Positions 20,933 to 62,166 of a stretch of DNA of 64,000 bases are shown here, in pieces. Position 1 is the first letter of the stretch, and every line of letters starts with the position of its first letter. The notes below the pieces were generated by a model. It made no database searches, was not told the origin of the DNA, and worked only from the letters and a program-made list of their open reading frames with translations. Both the position numbers and the translations under genes were made by a program. Source of the stretch: an uncultured Planctomycetia bacterium (GTDB lineage Bacteria > Omnitrophota > Gorgyraeia > Taenaricolales > CAZCCH01). Location of the stretch: positions 4,503 to 68,502 of the forward strand of contig CAZCCH010000007.1 of NCBI GenBank assembly GCA_964497315.1. The letters are read 5' to 3'.

Positions 20933-20936
20933 AAAA

Positions 20937-23212: not shown

Positions 23213-23298
23213 AATAGAATAAATAGTCTTAAGCCTACCTGATTAACCCCTAGAAAACATAAAGATAGAAATTGAAATGGTAATAAAGGAGGATACGT

Positions 23299-25662: not shown

Positions 25663-25671
25663 GTTAAAGCT

Positions 25672-27235: not shown

Positions 27236-27655
27236 ATGATAAAGAGAAAAAGAGTAGTTGAAACAAGGGCTTTTCCCAGAATAGATGTGCATCACCTTGT
27301 AAAATATAGGGTTAAAAGTGATGCAAACTTTAAAGCCGTTATAGCAGGTGTTATAAATATAAGCGGAAATGGTATATTGTTCAAGGCTTCAAAACAGATA
27401 CCAAAAGACACAGAGTTGGAGCTGGAAGTAAACTTTCCAGGCCTTGAGAGACCATTTCAAGTAATTGCCAGGGTAGTAAGGAATCAGGTTAGGGACAAGG
27501 GTGGCTTTAAAGTTGCAGCGCACTTTACTGAAATAAAAGAGACCGAAAGAACCCAACTTGTAAGAAAGATAGATTTTGTCTTAAAAAAACTCAAAGAAAG
27601 AAAATCTTTCTTAATGCAGCTGAAAAAGAAAATAAAGAAGTTATTCGGCAGGTAG
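27236..27655 (+). CDS. PilZ-domain protein (c-di-GMP receptor-like)
   Basis: RKRVVETRAFPRIDV (RxxxR-like) followed by NISGNGILF (D/NxSxxG). About 140 aa. First gene of the codirectional EPS array. Start set at ATG 27236 (the ORF track has TTG 27218). Confidence 0.6.
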   Translation: MIKRKRVVETRAFPRIDVHHLVKYRVKSDANFKAVIAGVINISGNGILFKASKQIPKDTELELEVNFPGLERPFQVIARVVRNQVRDKGGFKVAAHFTEIKETERTQLVRKIDFVLKKLKERKSFLMQLKKKIKKLFGR

Positions 27656-40973: not shown

Positions 40974-42062
40974 ATGATGAATAAATTATCGAGTTTCTTT
41001 ATCGTGCTTAAAAAAGGTTTGCTTTTCTGGATGGCCAAAAAGAATAGAGTTTTTTGTAAAGCGCTAAATCCAAAGCCAAACAGTGCAAGTTTCAGGATAA
41101 CGGAACGCTGTAATTTACGGTGCATAATGTGCGGAATTTGGAAGAAACAAACTGGCGATGAGCTGACCACTGAACAGGCAAAGATTATTATAAAACAGAT
41201 TGCGGATATAGGCGTTAGGCAGTTAAGTTTTACTGGCGGAGAGCCGTTTACAAGGCCGGATATATACGATTTAGTCCTGTATTCAAAAAATATGGGGCTT
41301 GAAGTTGGGCTTGGCACTAATGGCCTGTTAATCAACGAGGATAATGCCACAAGGCTTTTGGAATGCGGCTTGAATACAATCGCGATATCGATCGATGGCC
41401 AAAAGATAAACCATGATTATATAAGAGGGGAAGGTTCTTTTGAAAAATCCTTAGCCAGTTTAAAATTATTAAGTACCCTGCGCAACAAATATAGTTTTAA
41501 TTTAAAAGCTTCATTTACAATAATGCAAAGAAATCTAGATGATATCTTGCCTTGCGTGCATTTATTAACCGCTATTAAAAATGTAACCGTGCATTTCAAT
41601 CTCCTGGATTTCACTCCTTATCATTTTAGGCACAGCAAAAATGAGGATTTGATTCTTAATGATTTCAAAAAGTTAGATAACATTTTAGATAACTTGTTGA
41701 TTTTAAAAATGCAAAAACATTTTTTACTTGATATTAATCGCACTTTTATAGACTTCGCAAAAAGATATTTCAGAGATCATAGACAGCAAAAAATTCCATG
41801 TTGCTTGGGATATCTGCGGCTTCATATTGACAGTTCCGGTCAGCTGTTGCCCTGCTGGGCTATGCCGCCAGTGGCTGATTTGAAAACAAAATCATTGAAA
41901 AAAGTATTAAGGGGCAGGTTTTACAAAGATTATTTATTTCAAATGCTTAACAAAAAATGCCCGGGGTGTTCATGCGCAACTGTCAATAATGCAGCACACT
42001 ATTTACCCGGGGTGTTTGAAAGAAATATGAGGCTATTATTCAAAACATGGAAAAGCCGTTAA
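40974..42062 (+). CDS. Radical SAM protein with SPASM/twitch-like C-terminal Cys cluster
   Basis: CNLRCIMCG (CX3CX2C). C-terminal CCLGYLRLHIDSSGQLLPCW...CPGCSC. Confidence 0.7.
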   Translation: MMNKLSSFFIVLKKGLLFWMAKKNRVFCKALNPKPNSASFRITERCNLRCIMCGIWKKQTGDELTTEQAKIIIKQIADIGVRQLSFTGGEPFTRPDIYDLVLYSKNMGLEVGLGTNGLLINEDNATRLLECGLNTIAISIDGQKINHDYIRGEGSFEKSLASLKLLSTLRNKYSFNLKASFTIMQRNLDDILPCVHLLTAIKNVTVHFNLLDFTPYHFRHSKNEDLILNDFKKLDNILDNLLILKMQKHFLLDINRTFIDFAKRYFRDHRQQKIPCCLGYLRLHIDSSGQLLPCWAMPPVADLKTKSLKKVLRGRFYKDYLFQMLNKKCPGCSCATVNNAAHYLPGVFERNMRLLFKTWKSR

Positions 42063-44709: not shown

Positions 44710-45843
44710 ATGAGGGATTCAGGAGCTACTAAGGTATTGATGGTTGTGGGTACTTTGAACTTAGGTGGATTAGAAATACTTGTAGCCGATTTAGCAAAAA
44801 TTCTTAAAAGAAGATTCAGCTTCCACATCTTATGCATAACCGCGAGAGGAAAATTGTCCAGCCAGTTAGAAGAAGCGGGTATACCGGTTACCTTGATTGA
44901 ATACAAACGGCCTAACATCGCAGCCTTTGCGTTTAAGTTATTCAAATTTTTTAAAAATGAAAATTTCCATGTAGTACATGTCCACTTTCATATTACATCT
45001 CTCTGGGTTATTATCGCCGCTAGATTAGCCGCAGTGCCTGCAGTGGTTACTCACATACACAATACCTATTTTCACAGAGGTTTTCAGGCGTTTAAGGTTC
45101 GAACATATGAAAAGGTTATTTCGTTTTTAGCCGATAAAGAAATAGCTGTTTCAAATGCTGTAAAAGATTTTGTAATAAGGAATTATAAAAAAAAATTCCA
45201 CAAAATACAGGTTATTTACAATGGGATTGATTTGAAAAATTTTTCTGGTAAAGATACATCAGGCATTGAAAGGCAGGAAATTCAGATAGAAGATGGGGCA
45301 CGAATTATCGGTACGGTAGCCAGCCTTACTTTCCAGAAAGGGCACGAATATCTGTTAAGGGCTATGCCTATCATTTTAGAAAGCTGTCCAAAATGCCGGC
45401 TTTTATTAATTGGCAAAGGGTCTTTGGAGCAAACCCTTAAACAGTTAACTAAAGAGCTTGGATTAGAGAAAAAAGTTACTTTTCTTGGCGTAAAAGAAAA
45501 TATTTCTTTGTGGCTAAAAACTATAGATATCTTTGTTTTGCCTTCATTGTGGGAAGGATTGCCTATAGCGTTAATTGAGGCCATGGCTTGTGTTAAGCCG
45601 ATAGTGGCTACTAATGTTGGAGGTATTCCAGAAGTAGTTGAGGATGGCAAAACAGGTATTTTGGTGCCGCCTGGAAATTCGGTCGCTTTAGCCAATGCAA
45701 TACTTTCAATTCTGATTGACAGCAAAAAATCTGATCAGATGGGACAAGCTGGGAAGGCAAGGGCGAATAAACATTTTAGCATAGAAAAAACAGCTTTTCA
45801 AATTGAAAGGCTTTATGCTGAACTGCTTAAAAAGAAATGTTAA
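44710..45843 (+). CDS. GT4 family glycosyltransferase
   Basis: LPSLWEGLPIALIEAMACVKPIVATNVGGIPEVV. Confidence 0.8.
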   Translation: MRDSGATKVLMVVGTLNLGGLEILVADLAKILKRRFSFHILCITARGKLSSQLEEAGIPVTLIEYKRPNIAAFAFKLFKFFKNENFHVVHVHFHITSLWVIIAARLAAVPAVVTHIHNTYFHRGFQAFKVRTYEKVISFLADKEIAVSNAVKDFVIRNYKKKFHKIQVIYNGIDLKNFSGKDTSGIERQEIQIEDGARIIGTVASLTFQKGHEYLLRAMPIILESCPKCRLLLIGKGSLEQTLKQLTKELGLEKKVTFLGVKENISLWLKTIDIFVLPSLWEGLPIALIEAMACVKPIVATNVGGIPEVVEDGKTGILVPPGNSVALANAILSILIDSKKSDQMGQAGKARANKHFSIEKTAFQIERLYAELLKKKC

Positions 45844-47021
45844 AAGACAAAACATTAGCTATATTTTCCCTGCGGACATTTTTAAAGACACGAGATGGAT
45901 ATCTGTCTTCAAGCCCCATGGGGGAGTATTTGGAGAAATATTGTTCTTATTTCAAGGAAGTCCTATTATATGCCCCTGTGGTAAATAAAGATATTTTTGG
46001 AAAATACGATTTTAAATTCAGCAAGCCAAATCTGACTTTTCGTTGCATTCAGCAATGTCCTGTTTCAGGGCCGCACAAGATAGCGAAGTATGCCAAGTTT
46101 ACTTTTTTTATTATCAGGGATATTAGGCGCTGGGATGTAGGATTGATTTTCTTCCCCGGTTTTTTGGGCCTCCTGGCTTTTGTTCTGTCGAAGGTCTTTT
46201 CAAAGAAAACGGTGCTATACATAGCAGGGGATTGGGGAGAAAGCATCAGGGCAGAATCGCTGCAAACAAAAAAGGTGCCGGCATTACTGAAGGAGCTTTT
46301 AGCAAATTTTTATTTTATTATTTCTAAATTTGTGGTGAAATGTTCTCATGTGACCCTGGTTGCCGGGATGGCGCTATATGAGCGATATTGGGCTGAAGGA
46401 AAACTAATCGCTAGGCGTTTTCCAATAATGAAAATAACGCCAGAGAATTTTTATTATCGGCAAGATAGCTGTCTTGAAAAAGAAATAGCGCTGCTTTACG
46501 TGGGCCCTATTATTGCCAGAAAAGGAATAAGGTATTTGTTGGAAGCAGTGAGCGCGTTGCGAAAAGAAAGGATAGCGGTTAACTTAGAGCTTGTCGGCCA
46601 GGGAGTCGACAACGATTATTTTAAAAAATATGTTCAAGATTTGGAAATTTCAAAATATTGCCGGTTTGTCAATTATATTTCAAATGGCGAGAAGCTTTTT
46701 AACGTATATCGAAAGTCCGATGTATTTATCTTGCCTACTTTGACAGAAGGAGAACCAAGAGTTTTATATGAAGCAATGAGCCAGGGGTTGCCGATTATAT
46801 GCACGGCTATTGGAGGGATACCAGGTTTGGTAAAAAATCAGGAGAATGGATTATTATTGCCTCCGCGGTCGGCAATTTCAATATCAACAGCCATCAAGCG
46901 GATTATTAGCGGCAAGGCTCTAAGGATGAAGATAATAGCAAACAACTACAAGGTAGTTAGTGAGGCTTGCGATAAAGATCCGGTTTTACAGGTCGTTGAG
47001 CTCATACAAAAACACCTGTAA
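45837..47021 (+). CDS. GT4 family glycosyltransferase
   Basis: LPTLTEGEPRVLYEAMSQGLPIICTAIGGIPGLV. Confidence 0.75.
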   Translation: MLKDKTLAIFSLRTFLKTRDGYLSSSPMGEYLEKYCSYFKEVLLYAPVVNKDIFGKYDFKFSKPNLTFRCIQQCPVSGPHKIAKYAKFTFFIIRDIRRWDVGLIFFPGFLGLLAFVLSKVFSKKTVLYIAGDWGESIRAESLQTKKVPALLKELLANFYFIISKFVVKCSHVTLVAGMALYERYWAEGKLIARRFPIMKITPENFYYRQDSCLEKEIALLYVGPIIARKGIRYLLEAVSALRKERIAVNLELVGQGVDNDYFKKYVQDLEISKYCRFVNYISNGEKLFNVYRKSDVFILPTLTEGEPRVLYEAMSQGLPIICTAIGGIPGLVKNQENGLLLPPRSAISISTAIKRIISGKALRMKIIANNYKVVSEACDKDPVLQVVELIQKHL

Positions 47022-47055: not shown

Positions 47056-48147
47056 ATGTTTTTGAATTTGCATGATTTGTTAACTTTAAAAATTGTAAAT
47101 TGCCCTGAAGCATTTAAAAAATTTATTTGTGATAATTTTCAATTTCAGATTTATGAAAACTCGGGACAAAAAGGGCCTTCATTGGAGTTTGTTGACAAAC
47201 TGCCGGTCCAGAAACCTGTTTATTGCCTAACCGCAGACACTGGTTACTACGCAGACAACTTTTTCATTATTGACTATAATAACAATAAGCTTGTAGTCCC
47301 CTTTGATTTGGATATTTGTAACTGGTGTTTGAAGTGCGAGAAGGATTTTGACCCGTTACGGCTTTATAATTTAATTGATGCCCTTGTTTTTCAATTTACT
47401 TTGTTTGAATGCAACTGCGCCTTTGTTCATGCCTCCTCGTGCGTAGTTAAGGGAAAGGGGGTGGCCATAAGCGGATGGAAAAAAACCGGTAAGACAGCTA
47501 TTGTGCTAAAGTACTTGTTTCAGGGCGCACAATTTATTTCGGATGATCATTGCATTGTTTCAAAGCAGGGCGAGATGTTTTCTTATTTGAGGCCGACATA
47601 TATACCATATGCCGCCTTGGACGATTTCCCACAATTAAAAAGAAAGATTCCTTTTCGCCTTCAGGCTAAAATCCCTATCAAGAAAATATGGGATCAGGCC
47701 TATAGATGTATGCCCAGAGGCAAGACGGTGGCAACGAAAATGTCTGATGTATTCAACAATTTGGCGCAGTTGCACTCGAATATCCCTATAAATTTTAAAA
47801 CGCTGTTTCCAAATTCGCTTACAGCGACTAAATTTGATCTACAGCTGTTTTTCTATATCAAAAAGTGGAATGGAGAAGATATATATTGTCAGAAGGTTGA
47901 TAAGCGGGTGCTTTCCGGGCGCCTTGCCCATTCAAGCAGATATGAATACAGGAGTTTTTTTGATTATTATCAAATATATCGTACCGCATTTCCTGACAGG
48001 GATAATGTCATGTTCAGAGAGTATGAATCTCGAATTGCCAATATCAGTTACGAGGCGCTTAAAAAGGCAGATTGTTACGATGTGCATATTCCGGCAGACG
48101 GCAATATTATTGAAGTAGCGGATTATCTTTACGAGAAGTTTCTATAA
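47056..48147 (+). CDS. HprK-related (HPr kinase C-terminal-like) protein with degenerate P-loop, embedded in the GT cluster
   Basis: CAFVHASSCVVKGKGVAISGWKKTGKTAIVLKYLFQGAQFISDDHCIV parallels HprK HA..v...g.GvLi.G.SG.GKS..al.L...G..lvaDD. Confidence 0.5.
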   Translation: MFLNLHDLLTLKIVNCPEAFKKFICDNFQFQIYENSGQKGPSLEFVDKLPVQKPVYCLTADTGYYADNFFIIDYNNNKLVVPFDLDICNWCLKCEKDFDPLRLYNLIDALVFQFTLFECNCAFVHASSCVVKGKGVAISGWKKTGKTAIVLKYLFQGAQFISDDHCIVSKQGEMFSYLRPTYIPYAALDDFPQLKRKIPFRLQAKIPIKKIWDQAYRCMPRGKTVATKMSDVFNNLAQLHSNIPINFKTLFPNSLTATKFDLQLFFYIKKWNGEDIYCQKVDKRVLSGRLAHSSRYEYRSFFDYYQIYRTAFPDRDNVMFREYESRIANISYEALKKADCYDVHIPADGNIIEVADYLYEKFL

Positions 48148-48163: not shown

Positions 48164-49354
48164 GTGAAAATTTGCATTGCGGTTGAGCCGTATAATCTCA
48201 TATCCGGACATTGTAGACTGGCCGTAGAACTGGCCGGCCAACTGGTCAAAATGAACCATGAAGTTGTATTATTAACAACGCGCCCGACGGATGCCGTAGA
48301 GAACCTCAACAAACAACTCGCGGCTGATGTTTCTTTAAGTGGTGTAGAAATCCTGGCGCCTTTTCATTCTTCTTCCGACCCATTGACAGATAAAACGAAA
48401 TCTGTGATACGGGCATCTTTAAAAGGCGTTGATCTTGTTCACGGTTTTAATTTTAGAATTACGAACTTGATTATGTCATTATACGGCGCCGAGAGGGATT
48501 TTTTTGTTGTTTACCATTTATCCGGTCAAGCTAAATGGAGATGGAGAGATTTATTAAAAGCAGGGCCTTCCAGTTTTCTTATTCTGACAAGGCTTATTCA
48601 TATATACAAGCTTTTATCTCCTGCCGGAAAATTTAAAAAGATTTTGATGCGGTATGACAAAATCACAGTGGGATGCAATTTTTTGGCAGAATTAGTAAAA
48701 TGTATGGGGATTGACAGAGAGAGGATAGAAGTGGTTCCATGGGGCCTGGATATGAAGAGATTCACCGATGTTTCCAGCCAGCCATTCCCCGCACGGCAGA
48801 ATTTTCTTTATTTTGGATGGGGTTCATCTATAAGGGGAGTCCCGGATGTGCTTGAGGCATTTAAACTCTTATTAAGAAATGACCCCAGCGTCAGATTGAC
48901 ACTTTGTTTCCCAGGTTTTCACGGACTTGAAGAAGAATTTCTTAAATTTTCTATTAGAAAAATGAAAATCTCCGAATCTGTGTCATTAAAGAGTTTTGTG
49001 CCGGATATTTTGAAGATGATAGCGGATAGCAGCGTTGTTATTTTACCTTTTCGCTCAACAGCGGGTTTTCCTCACCCTCCTTTAGCGATTTTGGAAGCCA
49101 TGGCAGTTGGCAGGGTAGTTATATCGACATTGACAGGCTCAATCCCGGAGATAATTTGCGATAATAAAACAGGTTTTTTGGTGCCACCAAGGGATCCCAG
49201 TTCTTTGTATAAGAAGATGTTATTGACCTATAACACTCAATTGCGGCGGGAGATTGGAGAAAGGTCGAGAGAGTATATTGCTCTTGCGCATAGCTGGGAG
49301 TACGCGTTACCCAAAATTCTTAACGTGTATAAACAAATACAGAAAAAGGGTTAA
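48164..49354 (+). CDS. GT4-like glycosyltransferase (divergent)
   Basis: C-terminal ILPFRSTAGFPHPPLAILEAMAVGRVVISTLTGSIPEII. GTG start with GAGGGAG RBS. Confidence 0.6.
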   Translation: MKICIAVEPYNLISGHCRLAVELAGQLVKMNHEVVLLTTRPTDAVENLNKQLAADVSLSGVEILAPFHSSSDPLTDKTKSVIRASLKGVDLVHGFNFRITNLIMSLYGAERDFFVVYHLSGQAKWRWRDLLKAGPSSFLILTRLIHIYKLLSPAGKFKKILMRYDKITVGCNFLAELVKCMGIDRERIEVVPWGLDMKRFTDVSSQPFPARQNFLYFGWGSSIRGVPDVLEAFKLLLRNDPSVRLTLCFPGFHGLEEEFLKFSIRKMKISESVSLKSFVPDILKMIADSSVVILPFRSTAGFPHPPLAILEAMAVGRVVISTLTGSIPEIICDNKTGFLVPPRDPSSLYKKMLLTYNTQLRREIGERSREYIALAHSWEYALPKILNVYKQIQKKG

Positions 49355-51314: not shown

Positions 51315-52262
51315 ATGAAATTGCTGATGTTACTTTTAAAACTTTTTCCAAAAAGAGCGCAGGTTGAAATAACTACCCGGTGCAATTTAGATTGCAAGAT
51401 GTGCCCGCGCTCAAGATATGGCATAAAACCGATGGATATGTCATTGGGAGCGTTTAAGAAGATACTGGATAAGCTTTCTTCCGTAAAAGAGATTACGATA
51501 TCCGGATGGGGTGAGCCGTTACTTCATCCCGATCTTGAAAAAGTAATAGATTATTGCTTGGAGGAAGGTAAGAAAATTAAGCTGACTACCAATGGGTTGT
51601 TGATTAATGATGCAAATTTAAAATATTTGATAAAGATAGATGAGATTACATTTTCCATAGACCAACTGGATGATGATAAACATTTAACCTTAGGGCATTG
51701 TCAGAAGATAGCGATTGAGAATATAAGAAAGCTTGCAGGGCAGAGAATTGGCAAAAAACTGCATATCAGGATACAATCGGTATATTACAGGGAGAATAAG
51801 AGAGATATTCTGGAAATAATCAAAATGGCAAAAGAATTGGGAATTGATTCTGTCAAGGTGATGCGAATTAACCCGCGCTACGGCCCGCCCGGGGCTTTTC
51901 CAAATATTTCACGAAATGAGCTTTTAGAATTTTATGGAGAAGCGAATAAATTCGCAAAGGCGTTAAAAATGAGAGTAGACTTCGTAAACTATGCCTTTTT
52001 CAAAGGTGCAGCAAGGATTATACACAAAATAAGCATGTTTTTTATCCTCCCGGCTTTAAAAATTTACTGCACAAGGGTTCTCAATTTTATTTATGTAAGA
52101 GTGGATGGGAAGGTAAGCCCCTGCGGCGGGATACGCGATTACATCATTGGCGATTTGTCAAAAGAAGACCTTGGGGCTATATATAAGAGCGAGAAAGTTC
52201 AGGATTATAGAAAGAATTATTTGGAGATTTGCAAAGGTTGTAGTTTTATGATTGACCACTAA
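51315..52262 (+). CDS. Radical SAM protein with twitch/SPASM-like C-terminus
   Basis: CNLDCKMCPRSRY. C-terminal SPCGGIRDY...CKGCSFM. Confidence 0.65.
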   Translation: MKLLMLLLKLFPKRAQVEITTRCNLDCKMCPRSRYGIKPMDMSLGAFKKILDKLSSVKEITISGWGEPLLHPDLEKVIDYCLEEGKKIKLTTNGLLINDANLKYLIKIDEITFSIDQLDDDKHLTLGHCQKIAIENIRKLAGQRIGKKLHIRIQSVYYRENKRDILEIIKMAKELGIDSVKVMRINPRYGPPGAFPNISRNELLEFYGEANKFAKALKMRVDFVNYAFFKGAARIIHKISMFFILPALKIYCTRVLNFIYVRVDGKVSPCGGIRDYIIGDLSKEDLGAIYKSEKVQDYRKNYLEICKGCSFMIDH

Positions 52263-53019
52263 AATGGCAAAAGATATGAAAATTCCTATAGTATTCTATC
52301 ATTCGCTTTGTGAAGAAAAAAGCGGCAATAAGTATTGCCTTGATAAAGATAAGTTTGAAAGCCAAATTTCCTATTTGGCCAAACACAGTATTGAGGTTCT
52401 ATCGGTATATGATGCGATGAATCTAAATAAGGCGCCTTTGAGCACCAACCCTGCTGTTATGGTTGCGTTTGACGATGGATGCGCAAGCCTGTTTAATTAT
52501 GCCTATGCGATTTTGAACAAATTTAACTTTAAAGCCCATATATTTATCGCGACAGACTTCATAGGCAAAGAAGGATATCTACAATGGGACCAGATTGTAA
52601 AATTGCATAAAGATGGCTTTATAATAGGTTCACATGGCCATTCGCATAGAAATCTCGCGACCTTGGGGAGTGAAGATATTTGCCGCGAATTACAAATTTC
52701 CAAATCGTTGTTGCAAGAAAAGCTGAATGTGAATATAGACATAGTTTCGCTTCCTCACGGAGGTTTCGATAAACATGTACTGGAGGCTATTGAGGAGACC
52801 GGTTTTAAAGCTGCTTTTACTTCAGTTCCTACGTATGGCATTTCTTGCGAAAATCTTTATGTATTTGGAAGATTTGCGATTCTTGCCAATACTAGCCAGG
52901 CTAAATTTGAAGCAATCGTGAATCACCGTCTGCGGGTTTTTGTTGCGGAGAACTGTTTTTATAGGATGAAAAAGCTTATTAAGCCGGTTTTGAAAATACT
53001 TAAAAGAGGACAAATATGA
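52252..53019 (+). CDS. Polysaccharide deacetylase (CE4/NodB homology domain)
   Basis: VMVAFDDGCASL (Asp-Asp metal motif) and IIGSHGHSHRNL (His-His). Confidence 0.8.
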   Translation: MTTKMAKDMKIPIVFYHSLCEEKSGNKYCLDKDKFESQISYLAKHSIEVLSVYDAMNLNKAPLSTNPAVMVAFDDGCASLFNYAYAILNKFNFKAHIFIATDFIGKEGYLQWDQIVKLHKDGFIIGSHGHSHRNLATLGSEDICRELQISKSLLQEKLNVNIDIVSLPHGGFDKHVLEAIEETGFKAAFTSVPTYGISCENLYVFGRFAILANTSQAKFEAIVNHRLRVFVAENCFYRMKKLIKPVLKILKRGQI

Positions 53020-54464
53020 AGATAACATTTTTGGTGCCTCCGATTTTACAGGGTACGAGAATAGCCGAAAGAGTAGCCGGTTGTTCTTATGTCCTTTATG
53101 ATGTCCCAAATATTTTCATGGTTTTGTTCGCTGCGGTTGCCAGAGATGCTGGCCATGAGGTTTCATATGTAGATTTTCCTGTGATGAAGAAAAGAAGAGA
53201 TGATTTTTTAAATTTCTTGAAAAATGATGATAGCCATGTTTATTTCATTTTTACAGTTGAGCTATCTGTGCAGACAGATATTCTGGCGCATCAATTGATA
53301 CGGCAAACAAGAGGAAATATCCCTTTGATATTCGCGGGCCCGGCCCCTTCACATCGTCCGGAGACGTTTTTGAAAGATGCCTATACCTATATTGTAAGAG
53401 GAGAGCCGGAGCGAACCATGATAGAGTTATTGGTTACCCTGGATACAAAGGGCGATTTTAGTCAGGTCAAAGGATTAAGTTTTATTAAAGACAGAGAAGT
53501 TGTTCATAACCTTCCGCGGGAATTAATAAAAAATTTAGACGATTTGCCGTTTCCTGCCAGAGATTTGGTGGATAAAAGTAAAGGCATGTATTTTAACCCA
53601 AAATTAAGAATTAGGCCGGTTACTTTAGTGCTAGGATCGAGGAATTGTTCCTATAGATGCATCTATTGCGTACCGTGCGCGTTAACTTTTGCGATAGAGA
53701 TAGAATATAAACGTTATTTTAAAAAGAAACCACCGGTGAGGCTTAGAAGTGCTCAAAATATTATTTCAGAGTTTAATTTGCTGAAGAAACAAGGGTACAA
53801 GGCAGTTGTTTTTCAGGATGACATTTTTATTTGGGAAAAACAGAGAACCATCGAATTCTGCCGCGGAATTAAAAATGTGGGCATAGTCTGGGGTTGCCAG
53901 GCGAGGGCAGATCATCTTTCCGAAGACTTGCTGAAGGAGATGGCTCAATCTGGGTGTAGGTATATTGATATCGGCATTGAATCATTCAATCAGGAAATAT
54001 TGGATGCTGTGAGAAAAGATTTAAAGGTGGAGGACTCTATCAGAGCCATAAAACTTATCAAGAAATATGGCATAGACGCGAAGATAAATATCATATTCGG
54101 AGCCACGCCACTGGAGACAAAGAAGACGATAAACCATACCAGAAAGATGGTAAAGAAGCTTAAGGTGAGTCAAGTCATGTATTCAGCATGTGCGCCATGG
54201 CCCGGCACTGAACTTTACGATATAGCCAAGAAGCAAGGATGGTTTGTTGATGGCGACTATAGGCCAAGCGATGGAGATAGAGAATCCATCATACAATTTC
54301 CCCATTTATCCAAAAAAGAGCTGGAATCTTTATTGAAAAAGGCAAATTTGGAATTCTTTTTAAATATTCGATTTATAATGAGAAATATTTTCAAAACCGG
54401 CTTGTTCAATGTCGCCAACCTTGTGGATTCTGTTAAGGCCGTATTCAGGAAAATAAGATGGTAA
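53016..54464 (+). CDS. Class B (cobalamin-binding) radical SAM enzyme, likely C- or O-methyltransferase-type
   Basis: N-terminal Rossmann-like B12-binding region. CSYRCIYCVP cluster. 482 aa. Confidence 0.7.
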   Translation: MKITFLVPPILQGTRIAERVAGCSYVLYDVPNIFMVLFAAVARDAGHEVSYVDFPVMKKRRDDFLNFLKNDDSHVYFIFTVELSVQTDILAHQLIRQTRGNIPLIFAGPAPSHRPETFLKDAYTYIVRGEPERTMIELLVTLDTKGDFSQVKGLSFIKDREVVHNLPRELIKNLDDLPFPARDLVDKSKGMYFNPKLRIRPVTLVLGSRNCSYRCIYCVPCALTFAIEIEYKRYFKKKPPVRLRSAQNIISEFNLLKKQGYKAVVFQDDIFIWEKQRTIEFCRGIKNVGIVWGCQARADHLSEDLLKEMAQSGCRYIDIGIESFNQEILDAVRKDLKVEDSIRAIKLIKKYGIDAKINIIFGATPLETKKTINHTRKMVKKLKVSQVMYSACAPWPGTELYDIAKKQGWFVDGDYRPSDGDRESIIQFPHLSKKELESLLKKANLEFFLNIRFIMRNIFKTGLFNVANLVDSVKAVFRKIRW

Positions 54465-55477
54465 AATTAGTCAGGATTTCTGATGAGTTAGCTTGTAGAT
54501 GGGATTCTTTAATAGGGAATTATTCCAGTAAAAGATTATTCCACAACATGGCGTGGCTGAATTACCTGGAGAAGAGCCAAAATGGTAAAAAACTGATTTT
54601 TGAAATAAGAGACAACAGTAGATTGGTCGGTTACTTTTGCGCTTTGAGTATAAAAAAGGGACCCTTTAAGATACTTGGAAGCCCGCTACGCGGGTGGAAT
54701 ACATTTGAGATGGGACCTATAATGAATAGAAATCTCAACCAGATTGATGTTGTTCAGGCAATAAGTGATTATGCGAAAAACAATGAATATTCTGTATTGG
54801 AGTTGAGTAATTCATTATTAGAGCCGAAGGTTATGAGGGCAGCAGGTTTTAGTTTTTACAAAAAGTACACATATGTTGTTAAGCTTATGCCGGGTGAAAA
54901 AGAGAGGATGTTCGAAAATTTAACAAGTGTTTGCCGTAATAGAATACGCAAAGGAGTCAATAATAAGTTATCTGCGAAGGATATCAGTCATCCAATTGTA
55001 GCCGAGCGATATTATACCCTGTTAAAAAAGGTATTTTTCAAAAAATGGTTAGCACCCCCGTATAAAAAAACGAAAGTAAATTTACTTTTTGAAATACTTA
55101 AACCGGTAGGAATGCTGATCTCCATGCAGGTAAGTACTTTAGCAGGTGAAATTATTGCCATAGGGCTGTATCCTCATGATAATCGAACGTTGTTTTTTTA
55201 TGGTGGAGCCAGTAAGGGCACGCGCAACCATCTTTATCCCAATGAACTATTGCATTGGTCTGCTATGTTGGAAGCATCCAATATGGGAATAGAATCTTAT
55301 GATATGGGTGGTGTGACGTCAAAAGAGAAAAGCGGTATAGATAAATTCAAGCGTAAGTTCGAAGGCAGAAAGGAAGAGATTTTGCATTGGCAAAAATTTT
55401 ATTCACCCGTTGCCAAAGCGGCATATTCTTCATATAGGGCGTTAATATTTTTAAGGCAAAAAATATTTTTTATATAA
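54458..55477 (+). CDS. FemAB-like / GNAT-fold acyl- or aminoacyl-transferase (tentative)
   Basis: HNMAWLNYLEKSQNGK. About 340 aa two-lobed architecture of the kind common in EPS loci. Confidence 0.4.
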   Translation: MVKLVRISDELACRWDSLIGNYSSKRLFHNMAWLNYLEKSQNGKKLIFEIRDNSRLVGYFCALSIKKGPFKILGSPLRGWNTFEMGPIMNRNLNQIDVVQAISDYAKNNEYSVLELSNSLLEPKVMRAAGFSFYKKYTYVVKLMPGEKERMFENLTSVCRNRIRKGVNNKLSAKDISHPIVAERYYTLLKKVFFKKWLAPPYKKTKVNLLFEILKPVGMLISMQVSTLAGEIIAIGLYPHDNRTLFFYGGASKGTRNHLYPNELLHWSAMLEASNMGIESYDMGGVTSKEKSGIDKFKRKFEGRKEEILHWQKFYSPVAKAAYSSYRALIFLRQKIFFI

Positions 55478-57326: not shown

Positions 57327-58475
57327 TTGTTGGATATATACGAGAATAACAAGAGGAAGAGCAGAATAGTGAAAAGGGTTTCTAACATTGTTATCATTGG
57401 AGCTGGTCCGATAGGCTGCTATACTGCACAATTACTAAAGAGAAAAGGTATTAACCCTGTTCTAATTGAAGAGCATAAGCAGATAGGCAGACCTGTTCAT
57501 TGTGCCGGAGTATTAGGTAGTCAGGTATTTAGCAATATGCAATTGCCCATACCTGAGAAATCTATCAAAAATAGAATCGATGGAGCTATAATTGCCCATG
57601 ATAAGAAGAGCTTTGAAATTAAGAGAAAAGGCGTAGCATTTGTAGTTGACAGGGAAGTATTTGATAAAGAGCTTGGAAAAGGATTGGATGTTAATTTTGA
57701 AACCAAATTTATTGGCTTTGAAAAGAATAAAAAAGGTTATTTGATAGAAACAGACAAAGGAGAGTTTAAAGCAGATATATTGATAGGTGCTGACGGTGCA
57801 AGGTCTCACGTCAGAGAGGTAGGAAATTTCAAGGCGAACATTACTTATAAAAGAGGGGTTCAATTTAGAATAAAAACCAAATTGGACCTAGGGAGTTTCG
57901 TTGAAGTTCACTTAAGGAAACCATATTTTTCATGGCTTATACCTGAAGGCAAGGGAATAGTCAAGGCAGGTATTATTTCTGACAACCCCTACCACGACCT
58001 TGTAGAATTTCTAGATAAACGCAAGATTAAAGGTAAGATATTGAATAAATTTGGTGGTCTTGTACCCAGAGGTAACTGTCAGACTACAGATGGGAGCGTT
58101 GCCCTGATTGGTGATGCTGCTTGCCAGGTCAAGCCTTTGAGTCAGGGTGGTATTTATTATGGGATGAAATGCGCAGAGATTTTAGTGCACTGCATAAAGA
58201 ATGGCAGGTTAGGTGATTATGATAAAGAATGGAAAAAGCAGTTTGGCAGAGAGATGCAGATTAGCTCGAAGATTAAAAAGTTTTATGAAGGTTTAAATGA
58301 TGGCGATCTTGAGCAGGTATTTGATTTGATTAGAGAAAATTCAGGTACGATAGAAAAATTAGGGAATTTCGAGAATCATTCTTTTGTTATATTGAAAATA
58401 ATGAAAAATCCAAAAACGCAAAAAAAGATCGGTGTTATATTATGGAATTTAATGAAGAAGAGAATGCTGGGATAA
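57327..58475 (+). CDS. FAD-dependent oxidoreductase (geranylgeranyl-reductase / flavin-dependent dehydrogenase family)
   Basis: Rossmann VIIGAGPIGCYTAQLL. GDAACQVKPLSQGGIYYGM. Separated from the EPS array by a 288-nt gap. Confidence 0.65.
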   Translation: MLDIYENNKRKSRIVKRVSNIVIIGAGPIGCYTAQLLKRKGINPVLIEEHKQIGRPVHCAGVLGSQVFSNMQLPIPEKSIKNRIDGAIIAHDKKSFEIKRKGVAFVVDREVFDKELGKGLDVNFETKFIGFEKNKKGYLIETDKGEFKADILIGADGARSHVREVGNFKANITYKRGVQFRIKTKLDLGSFVEVHLRKPYFSWLIPEGKGIVKAGIISDNPYHDLVEFLDKRKIKGKILNKFGGLVPRGNCQTTDGSVALIGDAACQVKPLSQGGIYYGMKCAEILVHCIKNGRLGDYDKEWKKQFGREMQISSKIKKFYEGLNDGDLEQVFDLIRENSGTIEKLGNFENHSFVILKIMKNPKTQKKIGVILWNLMKKRMLG

Positions 58476-59548
58476 TCGTAGCAGAGAAAAAGAACCCAAG
58501 GCTTTCAATTATATATGTCTACCTTATGAATAGCTGCAACCTTAACTGTATCCATTGTTGGGTTAATCCATCCTTTACAAGAGAAAAAGAGAAAAAAAAT
58601 CACCTAAGTATTACAAAGTTTAAGAAGATATTTGACCAAGCAGTTAAATTAGGCTTAAAGAAGGTAAAATTGACTGGTGGAGAGCCACTCATATACCCGC
58701 ATTTCGTAGAACTTGTTGAGTACTTGAAGGAACAAAAAATCAATATCACTATGGAAACCAATGGTACGCTTATAACTGAGAAGATTGCAGATGCAATTAG
58801 AGATTCCAGTTTTTACCACGTAGCTGTTAGTTTAGATGGGGCAGGGCCTAAGACCCATGAGAGGGTACGTCGTGTAAAGGGTGCGTTTAATAAAACATTA
58901 GAGGGGGTCAAGAGATTGACATCCAGGAAAATTCCTACCCAGATAATCATGTGTGTATATAAAGATAATATGCAAGACATAGAGGCTGTAGCGAAACTAG
59001 CTCAGGATATAGGCGCCAATACTTTGAAGTTAAACTACATAAATATTCTGGGGCGCGGTAGGTTTATGAAAGAAGAGGGCGAGCTTCTTTCTGTTAAAGA
59101 AATAATAGAACTTGACCGTCACATCATGGAAAAGGTTTCTGAAAAATATAAAATTGGCTTTTATTCAAATACTCCTATGGCATTCGAATCCTTAAGGGAT
59201 CTTAGGCGAAGACATGGCACATGCCATATCCAGAACATATTGGGCATATTGGCAGATGGCAAGGTATCAATCTGTGGCATAGGAGAGGAGGTTAAAGAAT
59301 TGGTTCTGGGTGATGCTACAAAAACTCTCTTGACGGAAATATGGAGTCAGAATTCTATTCTGCATTATATAAGAGAAAATATCCCCAATCAGCTGGAAGG
59401 TGTATGTAGCAGATGTATTTTTAAAAGAAAATGCCTAGGTTGTTGTATTGCCGAGACTTATACCAGAACAGGAGATTTCAAAAGCCCTTTCTATTTTTGT
59501 CAAAAGGCCTATGAGGAGGGTGTTTTCCCGCAGTCGAGGTTGGTGTGA
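58442..59548 (+). CDS. Radical SAM/SPASM-domain enzyme (peptide-maturase / anSME-like architecture)
   Basis: CNLNCIHCW. Auxiliary clusters CGIGEE and CSRCIFKRKCLGCCIAETY. 368 aa. Confidence 0.75.
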   Translation: MEFNEEENAGIIVAEKKNPRLSIIYVYLMNSCNLNCIHCWVNPSFTREKEKKNHLSITKFKKIFDQAVKLGLKKVKLTGGEPLIYPHFVELVEYLKEQKINITMETNGTLITEKIADAIRDSSFYHVAVSLDGAGPKTHERVRRVKGAFNKTLEGVKRLTSRKIPTQIIMCVYKDNMQDIEAVAKLAQDIGANTLKLNYINILGRGRFMKEEGELLSVKEIIELDRHIMEKVSEKYKIGFYSNTPMAFESLRDLRRRHGTCHIQNILGILADGKVSICGIGEEVKELVLGDATKTLLTEIWSQNSILHYIRENIPNQLEGVCSRCIFKRKCLGCCIAETYTRTGDFKSPFYFCQKAYEEGVFPQSRLV

Positions 59549-59557: not shown

Positions 59558-59851
59558 ATGTTAACTGCAAAAAGATATATCCGGATTAACAAGAATATGC
59601 TTGAAGTTGGATTTTCTAAAGAGAAGATTATTGGAAAGGTTGTCAGGAATAGATTTTGTTCACCGTGCCTTTTGAATTACACATCCAGACTTATATGGGA
59701 TGAGCTAAAGAGACCTTGCGCAATCGAAAGACTGGCAGAGAAACTAAAGAGAAGGTTTTTAATCAGCAGAAAAACAGCTATAGATGATACAAAAAGGACA
59801 ATCAATATATTGGAAAAAAGAGGTTTTGTAAGGGAGTGCAACAGAAAATAG
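59558..59851 (+). CDS. PqqD-family protein (RiPP recognition element-like), copy 1
   Basis: 97 aa. RLIWDELKRPCAIERLAEKLKRRFLISRKTAIDDTKRTINILEKRGFV fits the PqqD pattern (W..l.g..tv.ei...l...y.v......Dv..fl..L...gli). Confidence 0.6.
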   Translation: MLTAKRYIRINKNMLEVGFSKEKIIGKVVRNRFCSPCLLNYTSRLIWDELKRPCAIERLAEKLKRRFLISRKTAIDDTKRTINILEKRGFVRECNRK

Positions 59852-59863: not shown

Positions 59864-60136
59864 ATGGATAAAGCCATAAGACCTAGAAGAAAACCGAATA
59901 TAATCTCAAGACAAGATGAAGAAAGGCTTTTATGTAATACTGAAAATGGTGACATTAAAGTTTTGAACAGCACAGGTGCTTTAATGTGGGATTTGTGTGA
60001 TGGAGAACATGCAATGGGTGACATTTTAGACGAAATAACCAAGAAATTCAAGGTTAAAAAAGAAGTTGCCGAGACAGATTTGAAAGAATTTCTTGAAGCA
60101 CTAGAGAAACTGAATTTTATAAATATGGGAGGATAA
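59864..60136 (+). CDS. PqqD-family protein (RiPP recognition element-like), copy 2
   Basis: 90 aa. VLNSTGALMWDLCDGEHAMGDILDEITKKFKVKKEVAETDLKEFLEALEKLNFI. Confidence 0.7.
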   Translation: MDKAIRPRRKPNIISRQDEERLLCNTENGDIKVLNSTGALMWDLCDGEHAMGDILDEITKKFKVKKEVAETDLKEFLEALEKLNFINMGG

Positions 60137-60140
60137 TTAT

Positions 60141-61193
60141 TTGAAACTGCACGCCCCCTTGTCAATTTGCCTATGTATAACTAATAAGTGCAACCTTTCC
60201 TGTAAACACTGCTTTGTCGGGGACAGGCCTGATGCTGAACCTGATCTTACGCGCCAAGAGATGCTGGACTTGATAGATGAGTTTGGCAAATACAAGGTTT
60301 TTGGTACTACCGTCTTTGGCGGAGAACCATTCACCAGTCCTTATATATATGAATATATGGATGCTTTAAAAAAATATAAGATAAAATTGGGACTGAATAC
60401 TAACGCGACGCTTATTAAAAGAAAAGATGCACAAAAGCTGAAGCACGAGTATGGTGTTGAAAACATATGCGTTAGCCTTGATGGTTCCTCGCCTGATATT
60501 ATGGATAAGACGAGAGGGGCAGGTTCTTTCAATAGGGTATTGAGAGGTATAAAGCTTTTAATAAGTGAAGGCCATGAGATATTATTAGGTACGACCATAA
60601 CAAAACTTAACTACATGGATGCAGAAAATATAGTTAAACTCGCCAAAGATATAAATGCCAAAGGAGTACGTTTTAACCATGTATTCTTTACCGGGAATGC
60701 AAGCTGTTTTATGAAAGAAGTATACCTTGACCTAAAAGATGAAGTTCAAATCTTAGATAGAGTTTATAATCTATACAAAAAATATGGAAATTTTATCACA
60801 GGATCTTACCTGTCCCAGAGGAAAAAACTCATGAAGCTGGAAAAGTTTCCACCCAAGCATGATAAAATTAAAGTTTCACCTTGCGGGGCAGGAAAGACAA
60901 GATATGTCATAAGGGCTGACGGTTGGGTTGTACCGTGTGAGATCTTATGGAATGTAAAAGTAGGCAATGTCAGAAAGCAATCCCTGCGCGAAATCTGGTT
61001 TTCTAAAGGCATGGAGGAATTTCGTAAGCCTCTTACTATAGATCTTGAGGATATGCCTGAGTGCAAAGGATGTAAATATCAATATATGTGTTTCCATGGA
61101 CATCGTTGCTGGCCATATTATTATCCTAATGGCATGGAAGATAGAAAGCTACATTGCTGGAAGAGGTTAAATGAAGAAACCGTTCTATGTTAA
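60141..61193 (+). CDS. Radical SAM/SPASM-domain enzyme, second copy
   Basis: TTG start with GGAGGA RBS. CNLSCKHCF. Auxiliary CGAGKTRYVIRADGWVVPCE and CKGCKYQYMCFHGHRC. Confidence 0.75.
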   Translation: MKLHAPLSICLCITNKCNLSCKHCFVGDRPDAEPDLTRQEMLDLIDEFGKYKVFGTTVFGGEPFTSPYIYEYMDALKKYKIKLGLNTNATLIKRKDAQKLKHEYGVENICVSLDGSSPDIMDKTRGAGSFNRVLRGIKLLISEGHEILLGTTITKLNYMDAENIVKLAKDINAKGVRFNHVFFTGNASCFMKEVYLDLKDEVQILDRVYNLYKKYGNFITGSYLSQRKKLMKLEKFPPKHDKIKVSPCGAGKTRYVIRADGWVVPCEILWNVKVGNVRKQSLREIWFSKGMEEFRKPLTIDLEDMPECKGCKYQYMCFHGHRCWPYYYPNGMEDRKLHCWKRLNEETVLC

Positions 61194-62166
61194 TATTGCA
61201 GAGATGACATTAAAGGTGGAGGGTGAGTATCCCCGGTATTTACTCAATGCATATGAGGCCTTTATGGCCACTTCCGCAATTAATAAGCCTTTTATATTAG
61301 AATATGTCGATTGGCAAAGAAAGCCAAAATACCAGGGCCATCAAAATTTAGAAACAATAAATACCACTTTGCATAAAAACCTTGAAGGAATTTCAAGTGC
61401 TCCAATTAAAAATAGACTAAAAAAAACACAATTTCTCCTGCCACTTTTAGCTGAAAACTCCATTATGTGGAACAGATACAGTCGTCTTCCTGCTTCGAAA
61501 AAGAAATCATTGCTGATCAGCAAATTTCTTTTTACATATAATAAGAATAATTTCTCTTTTTATCGATGGGGAGCCGGGAGTTTATTCATAGACCATTATT
61601 TGCGGCAGGCAAAATTTGTTATATTTGAGCATAGTGAATATCGCAAAGCCATGGGTATCCCCATGAAGGTTATAGTGAGGGATATGCTTGGTGGAAAAGG
61701 GTTTTTGCTGCATGCAGCAGGCCTGTTACAAGATAACAATGCGTATATTTTTGCAGGTAATTCAGGTGAAGGTAAATCTACCATAACTAACATACTAGCC
61801 CATAAATGCATCTTGAGCGATGAAACCATCATAGTTAAAAAAAGAGAGGGAGTTTATATTGGCCATTCAACCCCCTGGAACAGTCAAGGTCGCTTTAATC
61901 ACGTAAGTGCCAGCGGGCCAATTAAGGCGTGCTTTTTTATAAAAAAGTCCAGAAGGGTATATTTTAAGAGTATTTCACCGGCCAATACGTTTTTGAGATT
62001 AGCGGATAATATGACACATATTCCAGCGAAAAGTAGGACTCAACTGAAGACCCGATTAAACATGCTTGCAGATTTTAGCAAGAAGACTTGCTTTTACCAA
62101 ATGTATTTTAGAAAAGATGATTATTTCTGGACCAAACTCAAAAAACAGGTCATAGATGCAAGATAA
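61171..62166 (+). CDS. HprK-related kinase-like protein (HPr kinase C-terminal-domain fold, intact P-loop)
   Basis: GFLLHAAGLLQDNNAYIFAGNSGEGKSTITNILAHKCILSDETIIV. Confidence 0.6.
   Translation: MKKPFYVNIAEMTLKVEGEYPRYLLNAYEAFMATSAINKPFILEYVDWQRKPKYQGHQNLETINTTLHKNLEGISSAPIKNRLKKTQFLLPLLAENSIMWNRYSRLPASKKKSLLISKFLFTYNKNNFSFYRWGAGSLFIDHYLRQAKFVIFEHSEYRKAMGIPMKVIVRDMLGGKGFLLHAAGLLQDNNAYIFAGNSGEGKSTITNILAHKCILSDETIIVKKREGVYIGHSTPWNSQGRFNHVSASGPIKACFFIKKSRRVYFKSISPANTFLRLADNMTHIPAKSRTQLKTRLNMLADFSKKTCFYQMYFRKDDYFWTKLKKQVIDAR

Follow-up and report, generated by a model that had tools for sequence, protein, structure and literature searches.

Two distantly related HprK/PEPCK-like proteins in an exopolysaccharide block and an adjoining peptide cassette of an uncultured bacterium

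What do two HprK-like proteins do in one locus, when the first lies among polysaccharide genes and the second next to genes of a peptide-modification type? The question is raised by a 64-kb stretch of DNA from an uncultured bacterium (positions 4,503 to 68,502 of contig CAZCCH010000007.1, assembly GCA_964497315.1; hereafter the window, meaning the whole stretch analysed), in which one open reading frame (ORF A) is embedded in an exopolysaccharide (EPS) block and another (ORF B) in a cassette with PqqD and radical S-adenosylmethionine (rSAM) genes. We consider it probable that the two ORFs encode anciently diverged phosphotransferases of the HprK/phosphoenolpyruvate carboxykinase (PEPCK) type, which perform two different jobs and neither of which acts on HPr. 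The ORFs and their predicted catalytic cores are located as follows.

47056-48147 (+): ORF A, 363 aa
61171-62166 (+): ORF B, 331 aa
47428-47547 (+): predicted catalytic core of A (His125-Ala-Ser127, Gly140-WKKT-Gly145-Lys146-Thr147, Asp163-Asp164), which aligns to the core of HPr kinase/phosphorylase (HprK/P)
61711-61824 (+): predicted catalytic core of B (His181-Ala-Ala, Gly196-NSGE-Gly201-Lys202-Ser203, Asp217-Glu218)

A shared core and a distant relationship

The cores of A (HASSCVVKGKGVAISGWKKTGKTAIVLKYLFQGAQFISDD) and B (HAAGLLQDNNAYIFAGNSGEGKSTITNILAHKCILSDE) have one layout in common, in which a His is followed by a Walker A motif some 10-15 residues on and by an acidic pair roughly 15 residues further. 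When the six-frame translation of the window was searched with an extended pattern spanning these elements (H-[AGCS]-[AGS]-x(6-14)-[AG]-x4-G-K-[ST]-x(10-22)-[DE][DE]), ORFs A and B alone were recovered, and 200 residue shuffles gave 0.0 matches per set; four other window matches to the Walker A consensus ([AG]x4GK[ST]), including a Wzc-like kinase and an ATP-binding cassette (ABC) ATPase, did not carry the extended motif. Hence, the resemblance exceeds that of a generic P-loop, and the first-pass annotation, which had read an HprK-type core into both ORFs, was right in this respect. A third HprK-like gene in the window was ruled out by the extended-motif scan together with a B-type hidden Markov model (HMM) run over the window ORFs.

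A direct BLASTP comparison hardly connects the two proteins (E 0.26, 20% identity), and it is at the level of profiles that they come together. The A-family alignment (A plus 46 relatives, i.e. 47 sequences, at 18-29% identity to A) was joined by hhalign to the B-type alignment (B plus three ScmC-like proteins, i.e. 4 sequences) with a probability of 97.2% and an E-value of 3.8e-11, over 80 columns only, which correspond to the core (A residues 103-185, B residues 164-239); the B-type HMM, compared with 123 window ORF segments, recovered A at E 2.3e-5 and nothing else. The check proposed with the first-pass annotation (pairwise alignment and comparison with the Pfam HprK C-terminal domain) thus came out in favour of a link beyond the generic P-loop, with Hpr_kinase_C matching A weakly and B not at all. 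Since base composition is uniform (GC content 38.3% for A, 36.9% for B, and 38.3% for the window), there is no sign of recent duplication or recent import, and a recent duplication of A and B was rejected on the BLASTP E-value of 0.26 and on the GC of both genes matching their surroundings. As far as can be judged from their sequences, A and B are anciently diverged homologs that belong to separate families of the HprK/PEPCK P-loop superfamily, linked only through profiles and not close paralogs; the earlier description of them as paralogs holds in the sense of distant homology and is otherwise overstated. A phylogeny with canonical HprK has about 80 alignable columns to draw upon, at 15-20% identity.

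The tie to HprK, as measured by curated models, is weak at the family level and solid at the superfamily level. ORF A matched Pfam Hpr_kinase_C at E 1.1e-3 (19.0 bits, gathering cut-off 33.3) and TIGR00679 at E 1e-3 (18.3 bits, equivalog cut-off 240), its best NCBIfam match being HprK_rel_B (E 1.7e-8, 33.9 bits, against a cut-off of 200 that also applies to HprK_rel_A). For ORF B, neither Hpr_kinase_C nor TIGR00679 was matched, and the best NCBIfam model was ScmC (TIGR04249, E 2.4e-9, 36.9 bits), followed by HprK_rel_A (TIGR04352, E 3.5e-7, 29.6 bits) and HprK_rel_B (16.8 bits, cut-off 200). The label 'HprK-related' is therefore sound for the superfamily, by profiles and by the fold of A, and fails for the family, where every HprK/P, HprK_rel_A, and HprK_rel_B cut-off was missed. 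Downstream of the Asp-Asp pair, a regular-expression search for [ED]-x-R-G-x-G, a central-loop signature of HprK/P, found no match in A or B. Because the curated cut-offs were all missed, and both the N-terminal domain and the signature loop are lacking, neither A nor B is, in our judgement, an HPr kinase/phosphorylase.

ORF A: family, active site, and predicted fold

The word-indexed homolog search returned no relatives of A, and its version with the A1 profile returned 3 proteins only. A full HMMER scan with A recovered 858 cluster representatives (clusters at 50% identity) at E<=1e-3 and 171 at E<=1e-10, and most of the 150 relatives listed were full-length proteins of about 350-390 aa. The family extends over bacteria and probable archaea, at loci with a GC content of 32 to 65%, and tblastn against plasmids gave one match, a RefSeq protein annotated 'hypothetical protein' on a Halobaculum (haloarchaeal) plasmid (the same search with B gave nothing). 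Among the 47 aligned members, NCBIfam matches were scattered over HprK_rel_B (29/47), HprK_rel_A (18/47), hpr-ser (13/47), and FomB (7/47), with a best E-value of 7e-10, much weaker than the 200-bit cut-offs imply; Pfam Hpr_kinase_C was matched by 14/47 (best E 5.9e-6), far below what would be expected of a true member. The NCBIfam ScmC model did not match A, which is not a member of that family. By these profile comparisons, A belongs to a large family of small PEPCK/HprK-like proteins (members about 365 aa) that the copies of Pfam and NCBIfam used here do not cover.

The first-pass annotation had called the P-loop of A degenerate and the protein non-catalytic or altered in role, and on both counts the family alignment speaks otherwise. 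GWKKTGKT, read against the Walker A consensus, is a canonical Walker A with a family-specific Trp: Gly145 and Lys146 are present in 47/47 members, Thr147 in 45/47 (the other 2 having Ser), and Trp141 in 45/47, while position 140 is divided between Gly (23) and Ala (23). Beyond the P-loop, His125 is found in 47/47, Ser127 in 42/47, and Asp163 in 43/47 (plus 3 with Glu), position 164 is Asp in 35 and Glu in 12, and two acidic residues outside the core are also retained (Glu95 in 41/47; Glu297 in 43/47, plus 4 with Asp). That nucleotide- and metal-binding residues stay nearly invariant at 18-29% overall identity points to purifying selection on catalysis. The P-loop of B (GNSGEGKS) is intact, as had been noted.

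The AlphaFold2 model of A was of high confidence (pLDDT 94.6, pTM 0.90), with an N-terminal domain made mostly of beta-strand and containing a single helix. When the model was searched against the PDB with Foldseek, the 50 listed matches were all ATP-PEPCK or HprK/P, bar one at rank 43 (probability 1.00); the PEPCK matches started at E 4e-6, with query-normalised template-modelling (TM) scores of 0.50-0.55 over about 400 columns, and the HprK/P C-terminal domain gave target-normalised TM scores of about 0.5-0.57. The A-family profile, compared with the PDB, matched HprK/P best (1ko7, E 1.1e-3) and PEPCK next. The predicted structure of A thus has an HprK/PEPCK-like fold, and as a whole it superposes on ATP-PEPCK at least as well as on HprK/P.

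Polysaccharide context of ORF A

The genes around A, together with those of the same block that recur below, are these.

27892-57038 (+): exopolysaccharide block containing A, co-directional, 29 kb, all gaps <=58 nt
45837-47021 (+): GT4 glycosyltransferase directly upstream of A (NCBIfam/Pfam GT4 match)
48164-49354 (+): GT4 glycosyltransferase directly downstream of A (GT4 match)
40974-42062, 51315-52262, and 53016-54464 (+): rSAM enzymes of the block (family matches)
52252-53019 and 54458-55477 (+): polysaccharide deacetylase / FemAB-like genes, the FemAB-like protein weakly matching the XrtA/PEP-CTERM-associated FemAB family

The block encodes a BBP2 porin and a Wza-like exporter (pepcterm_export, XrtA/PEP-CTERM, 221.8 bits against a cut-off of 180), a Wzc-like tyrosine kinase, a Wzy_C protein, a flippase, a priming transferase, several GT4 and one GT2 glycosyltransferases, a PMT_2 transferase, methyltransferases, a deacetylase, a FemAB-like protein, and three rSAM enzymes; no exosortase was identified among the window ORFs scanned. 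Three rSAM enzymes are unusual in a polysaccharide locus, and they could act on sugars or on a peptide; one is AhbD/NirJ-like, one of the SPASM type (nearest to a tungsten-cofactor maturase family), and one B12-binding and HpnJ-like.

We compared the surroundings of A with seven further A-type loci, each represented by 2.6-17 kb of sequence: L007/8/9 (P0009), L010/11 (P0010), L016 (P0011), L017/18 (P0012), L019 (P0014), L021 (P0017), and L023/24 (P0016). All seven lie among glycan genes, and in none of them was a PqqD gene or a peptide-type cassette called. Orthologs of the GT4 upstream of A precede A-type genes in L010 (39% identity over 399 aa, 273 bits), L007 (37%, 266 bits), and L021 (31%, 118 bits), and the same GT4 scores <=75 bits with the other GT4s of its own window; by this comparison, there is a conserved linkage between one specific GT4 subfamily and A-type genes. 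Specific co-conservation of the downstream GT4 with A-type genes was not found in the relatives' loci compared.

Two kinds of recurrent partner were seen. In L010 (36% GC) and L021 (65% GC, GCA_041890195.1), a second HprK-like gene (341 or 356 aa) precedes and overlaps the A-type gene; the partner proteins are HprK_rel_A-like (46.7 and 39.8 bits) with a weak ScmC match, and between the two loci they are 28% identical (E 7e-39) and the A-type proteins 30% identical. These tandems of two HprK-like genes lie between GT4 genes (L010 3815-5918, L021 6940-9116). The second kind comprises an ATP-grasp-like protein (about 390 aa) and a dTMP-kinase-like P-loop protein, to which A-type domains are fused or adjacent in every combination: ATP-grasp::A-type fusions in P0030, P0035, P0042, P0152, and P0115, A-type::dTMP-kinase-like fusions in P0054 and P0149, a dTMP-kinase-like::ATP-grasp fusion adjoining P0021, and unfused genes for all three in L023. 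Between instances, the identity of the partners is 37-46%, and the Rosetta-stone trio is located at L023 3384-6216, L022 1842-4945, and L020 1542-3944. One A-type fusion adjoins a bona fide phosphoenolpyruvate (PEP) mutase (385.9 bits against 319.55) and a 2-hydroxyacid dehydrogenase. The trio of ATP-grasp, A-type, and dTMP-kinase-like proteins may represent a small-molecule pathway; neither an ATP-grasp nor a dTMP-kinase-like partner of A was found within the window.

Polysaccharide deacetylase and/or FemAB-like (Acetyltransf_6) genes also recur near A-type genes (e.g., L007 11107-13130, L023 2313-3164). Within the block, the Wza-like exporter (29070-31688, +, 872 aa) has an unusually long N-terminal extension, the first ~500 residues of which give weak SMC/coiled-coil matches. 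A PilZ-domain protein (27218-27655, +) is encoded immediately upstream of the block and suggests control of the locus by cyclic di-GMP. Further upstream lies a sugar-utilisation block (17394-26997, +), in which a solute-binding-protein::permease fusion of 748 aa is accompanied by another permease, a regulator of the ROK family, a GH94 phosphorylase of the cellobiose/cellodextrin type, and a phosphoglucomutase. A giant ORF (11-7699, +, 2562 aa), which begins at the window edge, has at its C-terminus CFIATAAYGTP and, after it, a basic, hydrophobic tail. A promoter/terminator scan of the window gave counts no higher than in shuffled sequence.

ORF B and its peptide cassette

ORF B stands in the following gene order, which opens where the array is interrupted by its one large intergenic gap, of 288 nt at 57038/57327 (all others <=58 nt).

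57327-58475 (+): geranylgeranyl-reductase-family flavoprotein (TIGR02032, 164.4 bits, cut-off 158.8), the first gene after the 288-nt gap
58442-59548 (+): ScmF-like rSAM/SPASM enzyme (TIGR04251, 363.7 bits)
59558-59851 (+): PqqD-type recognition protein 1, i.e. a recognition element (RRE) for peptides made by the ribosome and modified after translation (RiPPs) (Pfam PqqD, 30.1 bits, cut-off 23.4)
59864-60136 (+): PqqD-type RRE 2, ScmD-like / lasso-PqqD-like (NF033536, 43.5 bits; TIGR04248, 37.1 bits)
60141-61193 (+): ScmE-like rSAM/SPASM enzyme (TIGR04250, 163.9 bits), the end of which overlaps the start of B by 23 nt
62156-64000 (+), running off the window end: S26 signal-peptidase::MsbA-like ABC exporter fusion, 688 aa, which overlaps B by 11 nt

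The Scm-type genes of the cassette lie on one strand, overlapping or <=12 nt apart, and all of them are best or near-best Scm matches; B is translationally coupled to the rSAM/SPASM, PqqD, and exporter genes. The full gene of the exporter fusion was recovered in L001 (10986-13052), where it matches Pfam Peptidase_S26, ABC_membrane, and ABC_tran as well as MsbA (303.5 bits). The fusion looks like a counterpart of C39-peptidase ABC exporters in which the leader would be cut by a signal-peptidase-I domain; by eye, its putative catalytic residues are Ser23, His63, and Asp82, and no transmembrane segment precedes the peptidase domain.

ORF B carries a precomputed match to Pfam PF27840 (ScmC, E<=1e-5), which was not found in the local Pfam scan (the model is possibly absent from that copy), and His181, Gly196, Gly201, and Lys202 are invariant in the ScmC-like alignment. 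The detectable relatives of B are two, at 26-28% identity, P0002 from an Omnitrophota metagenome-assembled genome (MAG) and P0003 from a contig with archaeal markers; the scan of the genome contig collection with B returned no relative. Both P0002 and P0003 adjoin a PqqD gene, and their loci each contain a free-standing peptidase gene, the product of which is a homolog of the N-terminal domain of the window ABC fusion (BLASTP 4e-6 and 4e-9), with the motifs S-M-x-P, H-R-[VI], and G-D-[SN] in common. The combination of ScmC, PqqD, and SipW-like peptidase is thus found in the window, the Omnitrophota contig, and the archaeal contig, counted here as three unrelated lineages. We regard B as a ScmC-family protein of a divergent SynChlorMet-type RiPP cassette, an assignment that we hold probable jointly with the two-phosphotransferase reading of which it forms part.

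A candidate precursor of 76 aa (MKEEKQEYIPPKIEGLFPLSKSIAQCMLGEIGDALCDEGEAPDGGPCGGGSVPPTQPTCSPGDIAEACGDGYTVTE) is encoded in L001 at 12999-13229 (-), which corresponds to window coordinates 64169-64399, about 170 nt past the window end; the ORF is convergent with the ABC gene and overlaps its 3' end. Its leader motif is EYIPPKI, its core has 5 Cys and a high content of Gly, Pro, and Asp, and it is identical in the contigs L001, L002, and L003. Its exact sequence is absent from the protein collection, and the ORF is mostly missed by gene callers. Beside the PqqD gene of the archaeal locus (L012 12219-12347, -) there is a 42-aa ORF with KYVKPSL and 3 Cys (MSGKKKYVKPSLELLIQSRKILSVQTTTCTLCVDGCGTDPYA), so that both candidates present a [Y/W]xxPx[LVIFA] motif followed by a Cys-rich core. 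After an ORF search, no ORF inside the window, the 288-nt gap included, was accepted as a precursor. The archaeal ScmC locus (L012 8315-20361), which encodes a PDZ protein, ScmC, an rSAM enzyme, PqqD, the 42-aa precursor candidate, an S41 peptidase, three further rSAM enzymes, NTP_transf_5 (absent from the window), and PMT_2, looks like a richer version of the same logic.

Proposed roles and alternatives

Homology, motif conservation, the fold of A, and the gene contexts are observations, and the reading that we favour assigns A and B to separate jobs. The cassette of B mirrors those of RiPP kinases demonstrated by experiment (for the lasso peptide paeninodin and for linear polyphosphorylated peptides, LPP), hence B is, by analogy, probably a peptide kinase; the earlier proposal that an HprK-like protein coupled to PqqD implies peptide phosphorylation is, for B, backed by its context and by this precedent (PMC13381572, PMC8498205). 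In such a pathway, an RRE would bind the YxxPx[LI] leader of the Cys-rich precursor and guide ScmC, which would transfer phosphate from ATP to a Ser or Thr in the core, the two rSAM/SPASM enzymes would cross-link the precursor cysteines, and the cytoplasmic S26 domain would cut the leader while the ABC part exports the product. ORF A, on the other hand, would be an active ATP-dependent phosphotransferase of the polysaccharide pathway that does not act on protein, its acceptor being either a hydroxyl group on a sugar or repeat unit or the small precursor of a substituent. The whole-chain fit to PEPCK, the links to ATP-grasp, dTMP-kinase-like, and PEP mutase proteins, and the weak FomB likeness favour such a non-protein substrate.

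Several points weigh against this assignment. The kinase activity of A and B and all substrates are what we infer. By analogy, a peptide is favoured for A as well, as the HprK-type relatives characterised by experiment all have Ser of a protein or peptide as their target (PMC13381572, PMC8498205). In two genomes an A-type gene is paired with a ScmC-like gene, and FemAB-like genes recur nearby, so that a peptide or aminoacyl acceptor keeps some plausibility. The A-type gene contexts inspected number about 10, of 858 family clusters. For B, the 36.9 bits lie far under the NCBIfam ScmC equivalog cut-off of 125, the AlphaFold2 model built from the 4-sequence alignment reached a pLDDT of only 40, and the shallow profile gave only non-significant matches in the PDB. 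The proposed precursor lies outside the window and was picked by eye and motif only, and an NTP-transferase (nucleotidyltransferase; NTP_transf_5 type), the usual companion of a RiPP HprK-like kinase, was found in no scanned window gene.

The alternative to which we give most thought, unlikely as we hold it, is that A is a Ser/Thr kinase of peptides or proteins in the manner of HprK, PadeK (paeninodin-type lasso peptides), and LppK (LPP), so that EPS genes and cassette would belong to a common pathway in which A and B operate as a pair of kinases; A would then act on the Scm precursor, or on some other peptide or protein to be glycosylated afterwards by the surrounding glycosyltransferases. 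Every characterised HprK-type enzyme acts on Ser of proteins or peptides, A-type genes are translationally coupled to the gene of a ScmC-like/HprK_rel_A-like kinase in genomes as different as those of L010 and L021, and capsule loci surround the LPP and paeninodin clusters, the neighbouring sugar genes being suspected of peptide modification (PMC13381572). The EPS block moreover includes rSAM enzymes of the SPASM type as well as a PMT_2 transferase, all genes of the 36-kb array point in one direction, and FemAB-like genes recur near A-type genes. Nevertheless, neither a PqqD/RRE gene nor a plausible precursor ORF was present in the inspected A-type contexts outside the window, and the N-terminal domain of A, with its strands and one helix, is unlike an RRE, the fold of which is a winged helix. 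The model also covers the small-molecule enzyme ATP-PEPCK better than HprK/P, A-type domains are fused to an ATP-grasp ligase and to a dTMP-kinase-like domain (with one member beside PEP mutase), and the largest intergenic gap separates the EPS block from the cassette. An extended form of the idea, in which the 36-kb array is a single pathway to a peptide-anchored or peptide-decorated phosphoglycan, appears to us more doubtful still: here ScmC would phosphorylate a Cys-rich, rSAM-cross-linked peptide, on which the A-type kinase, its GT4, and other transferases would then build a phosphate-linked glycan (or would do so on an aminoacyl group added by the FemAB-like enzyme), with A-type and ScmC-like proteins acting as a two-kinase unit, an arrangement in which their genes stand, adjacent and overlapping, in L010 and L021. 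The first-pass annotation had argued for cooperation of the two halves from the paralogy of A and B; this argument falls, since the families are distinct, A and B each come with orthologs and a context of their own, and the sole sizeable gap (288 nt) lies exactly between the halves. Cooperation as such retains a small probability on the other evidence given above.

That A is instead a non-catalytic or regulatory P-loop protein, i.e. an ATP sensor or scaffold of the EPS machinery with a crippled active site, seems very improbable. It would fit the variable P-loop positions, which differ from those of HprK (GWKKTGKT against GxSGxGKS), and the missing E-x-R-G-x-G loop, and is opposed by the canonical Walker A, by His125, Lys146, Thr147, Asp163, and Asp/Glu164, which are invariant or nearly so in the 47 members, and by the conservation of Glu95 and Glu297. 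Even less can be said for A and/or B as genuine HPr kinase/phosphorylases of carbon catabolite control that merely happen to lie near EPS genes, a reading to which we attach next to no credence: the weak matches of A to Hpr_kinase_C and TIGR00679 (19 against 33.3 bits and 18.3 against 240 bits) speak for it and, by their scores, against it, there is no Hpr_kinase_N and no signature loop, B does not match Hpr_kinase_C, and both genes sit in operons of unrelated function. An HPr-like His15 motif (G[IL]H[AT]RP) was found nowhere in the window.

Significance

Peptide phosphorylation by HprK-like proteins that work with PqqD-type RREs is already established, and ScmC already has Pfam and NCBIfam models. 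What is new is, on the one hand, the cassette itself (two rSAM enzymes, two RREs, ScmC, and the S26::ABC fusion in a low-GC uncultured organism) and, on the other, the recognition of A, by alignment and gene context, as a member of a large family of glycan loci in which the active site is intact and partners recur. The A family (at least 858 clusters at 50% identity) consists of confidently foldable PEPCK/HprK-like proteins wired into polysaccharide loci. Should A prove to be a kinase of glycans or their substituents, it would bring a new phosphotransferase fold to glycan loci and explain a common 'hypothetical protein' found there; we know of no earlier description of an HprK/PEPCK phosphotransferase fold in such loci. 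The B cassette joins two sets of features known until now only apart, the SynChlorMet rSAM cassette, defined in silico, and the logic of RRE, HprK-like kinase, and signal peptidase I of the LPP RiPPs; by analogy, it would offer a concrete function for ScmC (peptide phosphorylation) and extend the LPP logic beyond Bacillota. The recurrence of HprK-like and RRE modules beside EPS or capsule loci hints at a connection between peptides and glycans. A literature search for HPr kinase, PqqD, and exopolysaccharide returned nothing relevant.

Comparison with known systems

With HprK/P (Hpr_kinase_N plus Hpr_kinase_C, TIGR00679), both A and B have the core motif in common, and A, by its model, the P-loop fold; they differ from it in that neither matches Hpr_kinase_N, in their N- and C-terminal extensions, and in a context of unrelated operons, without an HPr gene in the window. 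ATP-PEPCK (PckA) is the best whole-chain structural match of A and appears among its profile matches too. The H-A-S, GKT, and DD of A resemble the H-C-S, GKT, and DD of Escherichia coli PckA, from which A departs in being about 170 residues shorter, in its identity of ~10%, in its glycan locus instead of central metabolism, and in the lysine-pair motif, which was not seen (by eye) upstream of the His.

The FomB family of phosphonate monophosphate kinases (NF000361), small-molecule kinases going by the family name, is weakly matched by 7/47 A-family members and by the L010 partner, yet only at E about 1e-5 to 1e-3, and the window is without phosphonate genes. The HprK-related kinases A (TIGR04352) and B (TIGR04355) are the best NCBIfam matches for the A family and for the L010/L021 partners, but at 17-47 bits against a cut-off of 200 and over the core of ~70 residues only, so that they represent different families. 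Kinase A belongs to XrtA/PEP-CTERM EPS loci, and kinase B to an ATP-grasp-containing system; both would echo the present findings, among them the ATP-grasp fusions of A-type domains. TIGR04352 is named together with a PqqD chaperone of the 'HPr-rel-A system', TIGR04353 (NCBIfam).

The SynChlorMet cassette is the closest named counterpart of the genes around B: B matches ScmC best, and its neighbours match ScmF, ScmE, and ScmD. All four proteins nonetheless remain below the equivalog cut-offs (ScmF TIGR04251, 363.7/400; ScmE TIGR04250, 163.9/400; ScmD TIGR04248, 37.1/100; ScmC TIGR04249, 36.9/125), there are two PqqD genes in the window, and the flavoprotein and the S26::ABC fusion match none of the four Scm models. 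A literature search found no published experimental work on the Scm cassette, the LPP paper being the only one that it yielded on SynChlorMet, ScmC, or HprK-related kinases.

The experimental precedent comes from paeninodin-type lasso kinases, which phosphorylate the C-terminal Ser of precursors (PMC8498205), and from the LPP study of 2026, in which an HprK-like kinase forms a conserved set with a discrete RRE, a signal peptidase I of the SipW type, an MsbA-like pump, and an NTP-transferase (PMC13381572). In the latter, Ser3 is the core residue that LppK polyphosphorylates, the leader is handed to the peptidase by the RRE, and discrete RREs bind a [Y/W]xxPx[LVIFA] leader motif; the clusters lie inside capsular polysaccharide loci, and the authors suspect that neighbouring sugar genes modify the peptides (PMC13381572). 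ORF A, unlike the kinases of these LPP/paeninodin systems, has no discrete RRE, signal-peptidase-I-type peptidase, or MsbA-like exporter adjacent to it. Compared by cluster logic and not by sequence, the B locus presents the same set as the PadeK/LppK systems, namely an HprK-like kinase, discrete PqqD-type RREs, a SipW-like peptidase, and an MsbA-like exporter, along with a candidate precursor bearing a YxxPx[LVI] leader and a polysaccharide locus alongside. It deviates from them by adding two rSAM/SPASM enzymes and a flavoprotein, by fusing the peptidase to the exporter, by lacking the NTP-transferase, by the Cys-rich core of its candidate precursor, and by its occurrence in a low-GC uncultured organism that does not belong to Bacillota.

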